Shown: positions 3,195 through 16,428 of the stretch, piece after piece
Layout: every line of letters begins with the position of its first letter
Numbering within the stretch: the stretch's first letter is position 1
Notes under the pieces: generated by a model
What the model was told of the DNA's origin: nothing
Database searches by the model: none
Seen by the model: only the letters and a program-made list of their open reading frames with translations
Origin: a phage
Strand: one strand, 5' to 3'
Sequence record: PZ386977.1
DNA length: 64,000 nucleotides
Made by a program: the position numbers and the translations under genes

Positions 3195-3386
3195 AATTAA
3201 ATTACATTAAAATATGTTAAAGCTAACCATGTTCCAGTGAATGAACATGCAATGTAAAAAACCGTATCACAAATTGTTCTTAGTACAATAAGAAGTGCAT
3301 TTTTCATAAGTACCTCAACACAATTGAAAATATTATACAAATCATTGGGATACTAAGCAACCATATTCCGATCCACATTTTAGAGC

Positions 3387-3650
3387 TCATATCTCAACTT
3401 CCGCGAGTTCCATATATCCTTTGTTGATAACCTCTTTAAGGTCTTTAGAAAGAATAACACCAAAATGGTCGTTCATATGTCCGTTAACTAAACGAGTTAT
3501 TTCGGCTTCAGATGACATATAAGGCACGTCCGAGTCCCAATGAGATAGACTTAAATGAGTATAAATCATCCCTTCGTCATCTGCTGTGTTGTACATTGAA
3601 ACAAACTCACCGGTCACTTTATGTTTTGCGTAGAAAAATTTAAATTTCAT
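3387..3650 (-). CDS. hypothetical protein (87 aa)
   Basis: ATG ORF, RBS AGAGGA, promoter cassette upstream. Confidence 0.45.
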   Translation of the reverse strand: MKFKFFYAKHKVTGEFVSMYNTADDEGMIYTHLSLSHWDSDVPYMSSEAEITRLVNGHMNDHFGVILSKDLKEVINKGYMELAEVEI

Positions 3651-3669
3651 GATGTTATCCTCTTTTAGA

Positions 3670-3706
3670 TAGGACTACTATATCATAGTCCTACTTAGTT
3701 GTAAAC
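3670..3706 (-). promoter_or_regulatory. early promoter (GTTTAC-18-TATAGT) inside perfect 8-bp inverted repeat
   Basis: TAGGACTA ... TAGTCCTA arms at about 3670-3677 and 3686-3693; then RBS and ATG of ORF 3387..3650. Confidence 0.55.
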
Positions 3707-3719
3707 ACTTTTTATGAAA

Positions 3720-4277
3720 TTAAAGATGAAGATACCAACCGTTGTAGTTGCTCTTACGAACGATTTTCTTTAGGTCTTCATGGTCTCCCACGAACTTTAT
3801 AGAATAAGAGAAGACGTCAGGTGAGGTTTCTTTGACATTCAATATAATAATACAGTCTGCAACTCGATGATTAAGGAAGGGCCCTATGTTGATTCCGTTG
3901 CCACCCGGATAATCACCACTGTATCCTGTGGTAACAGAAATCCATTTAGAATCCATCTGATGTGTCTTGACTTCTACACGAATTCCACAATATTTAGGAT
4001 GGGCTAACACGTCCCACGCATACGTGTACGGGTCTTCTACGTCTTCAATACCTTTATTAACATATCCGTCTAGCCAATTTGCTACTACATACTCTGCAAA
4101 GACTGCAACCTTACAACGTCGAACTACGTCTTCTTTTATTTGACCTGGATCTTGTTTCAACGAGTACCGAGCAGTGTCAGCAATCTTCACTTTCATTTCA
4201 CTAGTCAAAAACTCATTCGACAGGATAAATGTCGGAAGATTCTTCAGTCTCAACAGTCCCAAGTTCGTCTTTACCAT
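3720..4277 (-). CDS. hypothetical protein, possibly DenB-like endonuclease IV (start trimmed to internal ATG)
   Basis: ORF 3720..4340 trimmed to ATG at 4277 with AGAGGT RBS gives 185 aa, the size I recall for T4 DenB which follows rIIB; no catalytic motif recognised. Confidence 0.4.
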   Translation of the reverse strand: MVKTNLGLLRLKNLPTFILSNEFLTSEMKVKIADTARYSLKQDPGQIKEDVVRRCKVAVFAEYVVANWLDGYVNKGIEDVEDPYTYAWDVLAHPKYCGIRVEVKTHQMDSKWISVTTGYSGDYPGGNGINIGPFLNHRVADCIIILNVKETSPDVFSYSIKFVGDHEDLKKIVRKSNYNGWYLHL

Positions 4278-12337: not shown

Positions 12338-12862
12338 TCATTTTAGCAAAATAAAATCAACTTGTTCTGCCAATGAACGTCTAAACATTAATTGACAACT
12401 TCCGAGGATGAAATCAGGTGCTTCATAGACCGCGATGTAGTATCCTTTAGCTTTCAAGAGTTCAACATCCACCTGGTCATCAAACCATGCATAAACCGCG
12501 TCAACACTTTCAAATCCAAAATAGAACCCTTGAGCCCAATCTTCGTTCAATTCAAATGTGTGCTCAATTCTATAGTATCTTAAGATATTTTGTTCAAGGA
12601 GTTTGTCTTCATTTACTGTAGGACGATTAGGGACATTATAGTTGTCGCCGTGATGGTAGAAGTTACCTGAGAGTATTCCATGCTTATCAAGGAACTCCCA
12701 TGTTTCTTCAGAGTTGTCGGTGCCCGACCAACCGTAAGGTGAGCGAGGTTCTTTATTCCAGGAGATTTCCCAAATTCTGACGGCTTTACCATCTTCGATA
12801 GCAACTCCTGGTAAAGATTCACGTTGAGTACAAAAACTACGTTCTACGCGGTAAACTAACAT
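12338..12862 (-). CDS. hypothetical protein (174 aa)
   Basis: ATG ORF; its GAGGAGA RBS lies in one arm of a 12-bp inverted repeat. Confidence 0.5.
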   Translation of the reverse strand: MLVYRVERSFCTQRESLPGVAIEDGKAVRIWEISWNKEPRSPYGWSGTDNSEETWEFLDKHGILSGNFYHHGDNYNVPNRPTVNEDKLLEQNILRYYRIEHTFELNEDWAQGFYFGFESVDAVYAWFDDQVDVELLKAKGYYIAVYEAPDFILGSCQLMFRRSLAEQVDFILLK

Positions 12863-12866
12863 ATTA

Positions 12867-12917
12867 TTCTCCTCTAGTCGATAGATTTATAGTATCAAAA
12901 CTAGAGGAGAAGTAAAC
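12867..12917 (-). promoter_or_regulatory. early promoter (GTTTAC-17-TACTAT) embedded in perfect 12-bp inverted repeat that includes the RBS
   Basis: TTCTCCTCTAGT ... ACTAGAGGAGAA; the promoter-distal arm contains the Shine-Dalgarno of ORF 12338..12862. Confidence 0.6.
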
Positions 12918-12921
12918 AACT

Positions 12922-13341
12922 TTATGCAAAAGATGCTGGACAATATTTTTTGATTTGGAACTCAGGAACTACCATGAACTGCCCGGCAAAAACAATGTTA
13001 TAAAGCTTGACACCATCTTCTACCCATTGGTCACTAATAAATCCGGCGATTTGCTTAGTTTTCCATGGCGTTCCATCAGTTGCAGCAGCAATAGTAAATT
13101 CATGGTCTTTTACAACTAAAACAGACCTGCACAGTTTCCATTTGAACGCTTTTTCTTCTGGTTCAATGAATTGGCTTTTAACGTAACCAATGTTGCCATC
13201 AGCATCACGAACTTTAACTTCATTGCGACCAAAAACCGGATCACTTACATAAAGAACTTCAACCAACTTACCAGCGACTTTAGAGCGAGAAGCATCTGAT
13301 ACGTGTACATAATCACCAATAGAGAGATTTGCAATATTCAT
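12922..13341 (-). CDS. hypothetical protein, tandem paralog 1 (139 aa)
   Basis: shares SxASRSKxAGxLVEV N-terminal and DQWVEDGxKLYNIVFxGxFxVV C-terminal motifs with the next ORF. Confidence 0.55.
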   Translation of the reverse strand: MNIANLSIGDYVHVSDASRSKVAGKLVEVLYVSDPVFGRNEVKVRDADGNIGYVKSQFIEPEEKAFKWKLCRSVLVVKDHEFTIAAATDGTPWKTKQIAGFISDQWVEDGVKLYNIVFAGQFMVVPEFQIKKYCPASFA

Positions 13342-13350
13342 AATAATTCC

Positions 13351-13806
13351 TTAAGCTTTACGAGGAGACACATAGCGAGTGATTTCAGATTCTTTAACAA
13401 CTCGGAAGTCACCTAAGAATACGATATTGTATAACTTTTCACCATCTTCAACCCATTGGTCACTAATGAAGCCGCACATAATATCAGTTTTGTTTGGATA
13501 ACCGTATTCATCGATGAAGTCAAATTCTTTATCAGTCTGGAATTCAACACCTTTGCAAAGGGCCCATTTGAACTGTACATTGGGTTCAGTAGAAGCAAAA
13601 TGAGCGCTCACATGAGTTTCCAAGAATTTAGGACTTACGTAAGCGTACTGAGTTTCAGTTTTTCCAGAACTAGGAATGATTCGAACTTTAACTTCTTTAA
13701 CACGACCAGTACCATTAGTACGAAGTCCGACAACTTCAACCAGACGACCTGCAGCTTTAGAACGAGATGCAGACGATACACGCTTAATTTCACCAATAGT
13801 AATCAT
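13351..13806 (-). CDS. hypothetical protein, tandem paralog 2 (about 151 aa, start trimmed)
   Basis: full-length similarity to paralog 1; first in-frame ATG lies in the promoter; MITIGEIKRV start has GAGAGAGA RBS. Confidence 0.55.
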   Translation of the reverse strand: MITIGEIKRVSSASRSKAAGRLVEVVGLRTNGTGRVKEVKVRIIPSSGKTETQYAYVSPKFLETHVSAHFASTEPNVQFKWALCKGVEFQTDKEFDFIDEYGYPNKTDIMCGFISDQWVEDGEKLYNIVFLGDFRVVKESEITRYVSPRKA

Positions 13807-13836
13807 AATTTCTCTCTCTTTGTTTAAGTTGAATTC

Positions 13837-13864
13837 ATTATACTCCATCCGTCCTTGGATGTAC
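13837..13864 (-). promoter_or_regulatory. early promoter (GTACAT-16-TATAAT) with spacer hairpin
   Basis: variant of the TATACTCCAACCATCCTTGGTTGTAAAC cassette. Confidence 0.5.
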
Positions 13865-13868
13865 AACA

Positions 13869-14363
13869 TTAATTAAGGATATTAACCACAGCACTACGTG
13901 GAACTACACTAAAATCACCTGCATGAACAACGTTCAGAAGTTCAACACCGTCTTCAATCCATTGGTCAGTTACCCATCCATTTACTGGACCGGCGAATGG
14001 GCGTCGAATTGAAACATATTTACACAACAAATCAGTAGGCTCAATAGGCTTAATCAGAGTACCGTACATACAAGCGATGTCCATATCAAAGTGGAGACCA
14101 TCTTTAACAGGTGCTTCTTCAATCAACAGTTCAAAGTCGGTGCTTGGAAGGGCGGTAGTAGAAATTGTACCGTATGAATTTTTAATTTCTAAGAATAACC
14201 AAGGGCCTTCAACTTGTTTGATGAAGTTAACAATAGTGAAACTATTACCTTGAGTGGCACCTAAAATTTCACAAAACTTTTCATAAGCTCGCACTGAAGC
14301 ACCATACCAGTTGATTTGTTTTTCATCTTTCAGGATGTAAGTAGCCGTAGTATTGATATTCAT
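13869..14363 (-). CDS. hypothetical protein, paralog 3 (about 164 aa, start trimmed)
   Basis: C-terminal WVTDQWIEDGVELLNVVHAGDFSVV module shared with paralogs 1 and 2. Confidence 0.5.
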   Translation of the reverse strand: MNINTTATYILKDEKQINWYGASVRAYEKFCEILGATQGNSFTIVNFIKQVEGPWLFLEIKNSYGTISTTALPSTDFELLIEEAPVKDGLHFDMDIACMYGTLIKPIEPTDLLCKYVSIRRPFAGPVNGWVTDQWIEDGVELLNVVHAGDFSVVPRSAVVNILN

Positions 14364-15114: not shown

Positions 15115-16428
15115 TCAAATAAAATGGACGTCAAAACGACCACGAGTTGTGCCGACATACAATAACTGTTTAGCTAATTCTGAATCGGCATAATGGATAC
15201 ACGGTGTATAAACAAAGGCCGTGTCAACAGACATACCCTGGGCCTTATGGAAGGTTGATACTGGTAGTGCCTTCACCTTAGTGAACATACGTTTAGCATC
15301 CCAGAATTCACTCCATGGAGCTTTACCACCTTTATTCCAGAATTTGTATGTTTCTGCGGTCTTAGCCAAAAACAAATTGAATTTATAAAGCTCTTCTTCA
15401 GAAGAAATAACCTTTATATCTTCGCGGACGTATTCTTCATCATCGCCATATGTTTCTACTGTAAGATTCCAGTATCGTATCATATATTCGCCTGAAACAC
15501 CACGTGCTTTAACGAATGTAGACGTTTCTACAGCGTCTCGAATACGAACGAACTGCCCGTTATTGAAAAGCATTTCGGTCATATTTTTGCCATCTAGCTT
15601 ATACGTCTTGGTAAACGGCTCTTGTAGAACAATGACTTCATCTTTAATAAATGGCTTTTCTGTTTCGAGAAGTTTTCGGCGAATAATTGAATTCAACTTA
15701 TCTACTGACTTATTTGTGAATGCCATCATTCGATTTTCGAAAAGGTCTTCAGGAGTTTTAACGACATTAAAATAGTTCATCATATACGATTTAAGGTCTG
15801 TATATCCATGAACACCGTGCCCATCAACTACTTTATCATAAATCCATTTGCCATTACGAATATCAGTCGCAACATCAATAATTGGCGCATTGCTACGTTT
15901 AACTTCTGTAAGGTTGCATTGCACGAAGTCTTTGTGAGTGAAGAAAGGACTTAGATACGCAGTGGATTCGCCTGGGTCTACAGGTCTAATCTGACATCGG
16001 TCGCCAATTCCAATTACTGTGCACCATTTAGGGATACTAGCTAACATTATTTTAAACAGAGAACGGTCGCACATTGACGCTTCATCAAATAACAGTACAC
16101 GGCACAAGGCTAAGTCGGGAACCTTTTTCTGTTCAAATAATACGTTTTCTTCGTATGTAGTTGGGTTGATTTTAAGAATGCTATGAATAGTCGATGCTTC
16201 TTGACCTGCAAGTTTGCTTAGAACCTTTTTAGCAGCATGTGTAGGGGCTGCTAAAATAATACCTGATTCTCCAGAAGAAATAAGGGCTTCAACGATGAAT
16301 CTAGTAAGGGTCGTTTTACCTGTACCAGCAGGTCCATTAATAGTTACGTGATGTTTCTTTTCTTTAATAGCTTTCATAACAACGTTGAAGGCGTTTTTCT
16401 GGCCTTCAGTCAAATCATCAAATGTCAT
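15115..16428 (-). CDS. dda: Dda DNA helicase (SF1B)
   Basis: 437 aa; Walker A GPAGTGKTT near N-terminus; size and synteny with T4 Dda. Confidence 0.85.
   Translation of the reverse strand: MTFDDLTEGQKNAFNVVMKAIKEKKHHVTINGPAGTGKTTLTRFIVEALISSGESGIILAAPTHAAKKVLSKLAGQEASTIHSILKINPTTYEENVLFEQKKVPDLALCRVLLFDEASMCDRSLFKIMLASIPKWCTVIGIGDRCQIRPVDPGESTAYLSPFFTHKDFVQCNLTEVKRSNAPIIDVATDIRNGKWIYDKVVDGHGVHGYTDLKSYMMNYFNVVKTPEDLFENRMMAFTNKSVDKLNSIIRRKLLETEKPFIKDEVIVLQEPFTKTYKLDGKNMTEMLFNNGQFVRIRDAVETSTFVKARGVSGEYMIRYWNLTVETYGDDEEYVREDIKVISSEEELYKFNLFLAKTAETYKFWNKGGKAPWSEFWDAKRMFTKVKALPVSTFHKAQGMSVDTAFVYTPCIHYADSELAKQLLYVGTTRGRFDVHFI

Follow-up and report, generated by a model that had tools for sequence, protein, structure and literature searches.

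The early protein MotB of phage T4 is abundant and binds modified as well as unmodified DNA tightly and without sequence specificity; it is toxic to E. coli, perturbs H-NS silencing, alters the footprint of H-NS, raises the expression of about 75 host genes and increases the burst size twofold (PMC6070864, PMC7827196). H-NS and StpA co-purify with it only via DNA (PMC7827196). MotB and MotB.1 have a conserved C-terminal domain in common and differ in their N-terminal domains (Patterson-West et al. 2021, PMC7827196). The C-terminal domain of MotB has been assigned to a cold-shock-type OB-fold by HHpred, and either domain was thought able to bind DNA (PMC7827196). Many phages encode several copies, and RB69 has two motB genes, one motB.1 and a 29-aa peptide (PMC7827196). 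The N-terminal domain of MotB.1 is an LSm-like barrel of SH3 topology that is common to GoF and Frd.2 (Kim et al. 2025, PMC12152347), and deletion and amber mutants of T4 motB.1 have no phenotype under laboratory conditions (PMC12152347).

We analysed a 64,000-nucleotide stretch of phage DNA (PZ386977.1), hereafter the window, for which three small ORFs of 139, 151 and 164 aa, arranged head-to-tail, had been predicted. Their coordinates were confirmed and all three lie on the minus strand; we call them P1, P2 and P3. Their 5.1-kb neighbourhood is 97% identical to the Mosigvirus phages ATK47, p000v and SHSML-52-1, and the window therefore belongs to an RB69-like T-even coliphage. At least 80% of the neighbourhood is covered in 148 phage records. 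The interval is the early "non-essential" dda-dexA-motB-cef-goF region of T4-type phages, with the gene order dda, dexA, P3, P2, P1, motB.2-like, cef, goF. The features discussed below are the following:

15115-16428, minus strand: dda, upstream of P1-P3
14428-15105, minus strand: dexA, upstream of P1-P3
14394-14422, minus strand: sigma-70/T4-early-type promoter before P3, GTTTACA..17..TATAAT (promoter scan, 11/12)
13869-14363, minus strand: P3, MotB.1 ortholog, 164 aa, acidic, two domains (BLASTP, phrog_2333, Pfam, AF2)
about 14046-14096, minus strand: linker motif DMDIACMYGTLIKPIEP of P3 (F/I-D-M-D-I-A-C-M-Y-G-T-L-I-K-P-I-E-P), residues about 90-106, interdomain
13872-14033, minus strand: shared module in P3, residues 111-164 (module used as tblastn query on the window; alignments)
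13837-13865, minus strand: sigma-70/T4-early-type promoter before P2 (promoter scan, 10/12)
13351-13806, minus strand: P2, MotB ortholog, 151 aa (BLASTP to T4 MotB, Pfam, AF2)
13354-13575, minus strand: shared module in P2, residues 78-151 (tblastn; alignments)
12922-13341, minus strand: P1, second MotB paralog, 139 aa, equivalent to RB69ORF010c (BLASTP, phrog_1671)
12925-13149, minus strand: shared module in P1, residues 65-139 (tblastn; alignments)
12867-12911, minus strand: perfect 13-bp inverted repeat (UUCUCCUCUAGUU / GACUAGAGGAGAA), just 5' of the motB.2-like gene
12338-12862, minus strand: motB.2-like gene, 174 aa, downstream of P1 (34% identity to T4 MotB.2)

All three proteins pass the gathering threshold (25 bits) of the Pfam family motB (PF17613), with 131.3 bits for P2, 85.3 for P1 and 35.9 for P3. 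P2 covers profile positions 2-157 of 162 (E 4e-38) and P1 matches in two stretches; both carry a KOW-like N-terminal domain with a V-S-x-x-S-R-S-K-x-A-G signature followed by the C-terminal module. P3 matches profile positions 82-153 only and lacks the full-length MotB architecture, its N-terminal half being unlike those of P1 and P2. In PHROGs, P1 and P2 fall into the MotB-like phrog_1671 (P1 over its full length, 1e-52) and P3 into phrog_2333 (residues 1-164, 3.3e-81). BLASTP gave 48% identity between P2 and T4 MotB (E=1e-43), 40% between P1 and T4 MotB (E=3e-28) and 37% between P3 and T4 MotB.1 (E=9e-27), and P2 is 95% identical to RB69 MotB. These identities pass reciprocal best-hit and synteny tests. 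The locus is the motB.1 (P3) - motB (P2) - second motB (P1) segment of RB69-like phages. It was already known, and its observation is a rediscovery, because both the shared domain and the RB69 arrangement of two motB genes plus motB.1 were published in 2021 (PMC7827196).

Comparison of the T4 and RB69 loci showed that the position of MotB family members between dexA and cef/goF holds for the window. The order is dexA-motB.1-motB-motB'-motB.2-cef in the window and RB69, and dexA-motB.2-motB.1-motB-cef in T4; the MotB.2 homolog thus lies downstream of the motB genes in the former two and directly after dexA in T4. The 174-aa gene downstream of P1 was considered as a fourth paralog and rejected, since it is this MotB.2 homolog and has no similarity to P1-P3. 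The window lacks the T4 genes dexA.1 and dexA.2; the gap between its dda and dexA is only 9 nt.

According to the original prediction, the similarity of P1 and P2 extends over their whole length, and P3 shares only a C-terminal module with them. Both statements were borne out when Smith-Waterman local scores were compared with those of 2000 shuffles. P1 and P2 are 45% identical over 145 columns (BLASTP E=4e-32, full length; z=44.6), and P3 resembles P1 (59% identity over 29 residues, E=5e-11) and P2 (E=3e-10) at the C-terminus only, with z values of 15.9 and 14.7. The N-terminal parts of P1 and P2 are no more similar to that of P3 than shuffled sequences are. Because the strongly similar stretch of P3 spans just about 30 residues, one may ask whether its resemblance to P1 and P2 is due to chance or composition. 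This is virtually inconceivable: with z values of 15-16, none of the 2000 shuffles reached the observed score for any of the three pairs, so that the alignments are far better than shuffled controls; the BLASTP E values point the same way, P3 scores above the Pfam gathering score, and the motif is invariant in 56 homologs. Chance similarity was accordingly ruled out by the shuffle controls. What is shared is larger than the DQW..VV motif that had been singled out, namely a whole domain of about 54-75 residues.

The start codons chosen for the 151-aa and 164-aa forms proved right. The mechanical ORFs of 172 aa (P2) and 178 aa (P3) would contain the -10 boxes of the strong promoters listed above, and the alignment with T4 MotB begins at residue 1 of the 151-aa form of P2. 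The promoter of P3 reads TTTACA-17-TATAAT (11/12 matches) and that of P2 (10/12) sits within the over-long 172-aa ORF. The MotB ortholog is annotated with 165-175 aa in ATK47 (KT184309; 3458-3955 of the compared ATK47 stretch) and many other database entries; these long annotations begin at an upstream ATG within or upstream of the early promoter, and the 151-aa start of RB69 MotB agrees with where the promoter lies and with the way T4 MotB aligns. Each of the three genes had been predicted to have its own promoter, which agrees with our scan for P3 and P2 but does not extend to P1. P1 starts 9 nt past the P2 stop codon with just a Shine-Dalgarno sequence between them, and is therefore probably co-transcribed with P2. 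The inverted repeat at 12867-12911 (-20 kcal/mol, z=-3.5) includes a GAGGAG Shine-Dalgarno sequence in its 3' arm and a weak GTTTAC...TATAAA promoter-like element inside the hairpin. It recalls an arrangement in T4 in which read-through transcripts are translationally masked and transcripts starting inside the hairpin are not.

The shared module comes in a short form of about 54 residues (MotB.1 type) and a long form of about 75 (MotB type); a variable hairpin insertion accounts for the difference. Its invariant residues are D133, W135, E137, G139, N144 and V146 (P3 numbering), and tblastn detected no further copies elsewhere in the 64-kb window. In AlphaFold2 models built with family alignments (pLDDT 82 for P3 and 85.6 for P2), both proteins have two all-beta domains joined by a low-confidence linker. 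The N-terminal domain of P3 is modelled with five strands and a helix as an LSm/SH3-like barrel. The module is modelled with five strands and a sole short helix between strands 4 and 5, an order typical of SH3-like barrels and not of the OB-fold; the latter has its helix between strands 3 and 4 and is expected to find OB-fold structural neighbours, neither of which applies to the module model. Foldseek aligned 120-165 columns of P3 with the tandem-Tudor or multi-KOW proteins 53BP1, Crb2, UHRF1 and Spt5 (E about 5e-3, probability about 1). P1, P2 and P3 are thus each predicted to consist of two SH3-like barrels in tandem with a flexible linker between them, with a KOW-like N-terminal barrel in P1 and P2 and an LSm-like one in P3. 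The C-terminal domain of MotB has been published as an OB-fold (HHpred, PMC7827196), whereas our models make an SH3-like barrel the more likely fold.

Sequence relatives in PDB were found neither for full-length P2 nor for the module profile. The profile of the N-terminal domain gave weak, non-significant matches (E 0.1-2), mostly to KOW proteins (uL24, NusG and eL27), and the module profile matched nothing among the Tudor/"Royal" or KOW families. The likeness of the P1-P3 domains to Tudor and KOW families is, as far as the models go, one of fold only. Whether the module arose by duplication and divergence of the N-terminal KOW barrel was also considered; comparing the profiles of both domains with hhalign gave nothing (probability 0.2%), which leaves this idea without support from the sequences. 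The linker motif of P3 (consensus D-x-D-[IV]-x-S-x-Y-x-x-P; pLDDT 55-64) is absent from T4 MotB.1 and recurs N-terminally in a class of 180-aa proteins or between the domains of hybrid proteins.

Comparison with T4 and RB69 uncovered apparent errors in the reference sequences of motB.1. The T4 reference (AF158101.6 = NC_000866.4; motB.1 at 1792-2151 of the compared T4 locus stretch) reads TGGATTGGAAGATGG within the DQWIEDG codons, with an extra G, so that MotB.1 stops after 119 aa; LEDGVELLNVVHAGEYSVVPRSAVVAILN follows in the +1 frame. In four T4 genomes that were sequenced independently (MT984581, KJ477684, OZ209023 and HM137666), the reading is TGGATTGAAGATGG and MotB.1 is a continuous protein of 143 aa with the complete C-terminal module, and 11 other re-sequenced T4-type records listed (T4, RB55 and RB59) are one base shorter than the reference. 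The 143-aa form passes the Pfam motB threshold at 33 bits and the 119-aa form matches nothing in this comparison. Judged by these sequences, the true T4 MotB.1 is a protein of 143 aa. A programmed frameshift in T4 motB.1 was considered and rejected, as the four independently sequenced genomes lack the extra G and have a continuous ORF. None of the viral contigs searched carries the frameshifted motif, and the motB.1 literature searched does not mention the extra base.

The motB.1 plasmids of 2025 were obtained by commercial construction and gene synthesis; NC_000866.4 is cited explicitly in the methods just for amber-mutant fragments, and MotB.1 is described as a 13.8 kDa protein (PMC12152347). 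The calculated mass of the 119-aa MotB.1 is 13.8 kDa. These constructs apparently followed the truncated NC_000866.4 sequence, and therefore probably lack three of the five strands of the C-terminal barrel. In the RB69 reference (NC_004928; motB.1 at 3377-3873 of the compared RB69 locus stretch), motB.1 is split into ORFs of 132 aa and 29 aa by two one-base insertions. Since these insertions occur in the RB69 reference alone, being absent from the window, ATK47 and every other related record (all 2 nt shorter), the "category 3" 29-aa peptide of RB69 is, on this sequence comparison, the displaced C-terminus of MotB.1. The insertions are either sequencing compressions or real mutations. One of them is no more than about 10 nt away from where the T4 error lies, and both references are old Sanger sequences.

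P2 has a strongly basic N-terminal domain (net +8, pI 10.7), and 109 of 123 MotB-type N-terminal domains have a charge of at least +3. Throughout the family the module core carries a charge of 0 to -4, and P3 as a whole is acidic (pI 4.65). The N-terminal domain of P1 has a charge of about -2 (-1 to -2; -2 to 0 in the P1 lineage), and the P1 linker comprises 4 residues only. The basic N-terminal domain of P2 agrees with DNA binding of the MotB type; P1 and P3 lack that charge. By analogy with T4 MotB, to which it is 48% identical, P2 would be an abundant product of its own early promoter in the first minutes after infection. Covering the DNA of host and phage alike, whatever the sequence, it would shift the placement of H-NS and StpA on DNA and so derepress some H-NS-silenced genes, and its action would lead to a modest rise in burst size. 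We hold with good confidence to this explanation as a whole, that is, a known motB.1-motB-second motB segment encoding two-barrel proteins with MotB-like action.

Within this explanation, we infer that non-specific DNA binding would be performed mainly by the basic KOW-like N-terminal barrel of P2, because this domain is basic while the module is charged 0 to -4. The neutral-to-acidic C-terminal barrel, with its invariant D-x-W-x-E-x-G...N-x-V face, could be a protein-interaction or self-association module; charge and conservation make a protein-interaction role the more likely one. P1, whose linker is short and whose N-terminal domain is uncharged, and P3, which is acidic and has another type of N-terminal barrel, may be diverged partners or variants rather than redundant DNA coaters. 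Our trust in this assignment, with DNA binding in the KOW-like barrel, interaction in the shared barrel and P1 and P3 as its diverged users, falls somewhat short of even.

The shared module might instead be a nucleic-acid-binding OB-fold itself, and all three proteins DNA- or RNA-binding nucleoid proteins whose accessory N-terminal domains differ. The published OB-fold assignment and the published remark that either domain could bind DNA (PMC7827196) speak for this; the module is also the most conserved part of the family, and SH3-like barrels (KOW, PWWP and some Tudor domains) can bind nucleic acids too. The charge of the module argues against a DNA-binding surface on it; together with the more likely SH3-like fold, this redirects domain-dissection experiments. 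We consider binding by the module unlikely, if well worth keeping in view. If the shared barrel is an interaction module, a bolder possibility is that it serves homo- or hetero-association (or binding of a common partner) and that MotB, the second MotB and MotB.1 co-assemble on the nucleoid in mixed complexes. We regard this as a long shot. If true, such complexes would bring the DNA-binding KOW barrel together with an LSm-like barrel that may bind RNA, the uncharged and acidic paralogs would tune or cap MotB polymerisation, and the experiments behind the published negative results with the 119-aa MotB.1 construct would have to be done again with intact MotB.1.

At the protein level, P1-P3 show 95-100% identity to their counterparts in ATK47 and RB69, and the nucleotide identity is lower. 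All three genes are under purifying and not diversifying selection, since dN/dS is 0.00-0.17 (window vs ATK47 or RB69), similar to the values of cef, dexA and dda. Of 774 phage records, 208 have a P1-type copy (at least 80% identity), each time together with a second MotB-type place, and the other 566 have nothing but a MotB of less than 60% identity. When 1.84 billion representative proteins were searched exhaustively with the profile, just 31 clusters came up, all of them small T-even-type proteins save one. This exception, an 842-aa Ig-repeat protein that matches via a repeated GYQWQKNGV stretch, was regarded as spurious. The most distant real members have a KOW-like N-terminus and a D-x-W-x-E-D-G...L-x-N-V-V-F module. 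In T-even phages, the module is fused to several N-terminal arrangements in proteins of about 143, 164, 180 and 250 aa, and some hybrids join a MotB-type N-terminus to a MotB.1-type module. The deep-time change of the family is one of domain shuffling, not of arms-race hypervariability.

The original prediction had described a diversifying tandem family that might target host factors or defence systems. The protein identities and dN/dS values do not support diversification at the scale tested; what is supported is that the genes are tandem paralogs in a phage early region, and MotB has been published as a host-takeover protein. An arms-race family, with anti-defence or host-factor-targeting functions and diversifying by duplication, would fit the location of the genes in an early, non-essential region, the lineage-specific duplication that produced P1 in 208 of the 774 records, the recombination of the module in T-even phages with N-terminal regions of four or more kinds, and knock-outs that are mild or silent in laboratory hosts, as is typical of conditional accessory genes. 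We nevertheless find it improbable, because within the Mosigvirus relatives the three genes are as constrained as the neighbouring housekeeping early genes, the P3 linker has a few variable residues but hypervariable patches are otherwise lacking, these proteins are not known to counter any defence system, and the documented activity of MotB is general DNA binding.

The locus itself thus holds nothing new: it is a known gene family in a known arrangement, real, statistically solid and delimited correctly. What is added are the reading of the domains as SH3-like folds, the reading of their charges, and the corrections of T4 motB.1 and of the RB69 29-aa peptide, all being of practical use for work on T4 early genes.

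Among known systems, T7 gp5.5 and T4 Arn resemble MotB in their early interference with H-NS silencing. They differ in that they bind H-NS directly, whereas MotB meets H-NS only through DNA (PMC7827196), and they have no sequence or fold relation to MotB. The tandem Tudor domains of 53BP1 and the KOW domains of Spt5/NusG are tandem SH3-like barrel readers, which the predicted structures of P1-P3 resemble at the level of fold. T4 MotB has the same two-domain layout as P1 and P2 (40% and 48% identical, respectively) and the same position in the dexA-cef early region, and T4 motB, like P2, has its own early promoter. Unlike T4, which has one MotB-type gene, the window has two, and the N-terminal domain of P1 has lost the basic charge (about -2 vs +5 to +9) and P1 most of the linker. 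T4 MotB.1 (phrog_2333; LSm-like N-terminal domain family, PMC12152347) is 37% identical to P3, is likewise encoded immediately upstream of motB, and has an equivalent N-terminal barrel together with the MotB-type C-terminal module; P3 (164 aa) differs from it by the extra 20-residue linker motif DMDIACMYGTLIKPIEP. The closest counterpart is the RB69 segment RB69p009-p013 (motB.2, ORF010c, motB, ORF012c, motB.1), which matches the window in gene content and order and encodes proteins about 95% identical to P1 and P2. Its reference motB.1 is split by the two one-base insertions, whereas motB.1 of the window is intact.
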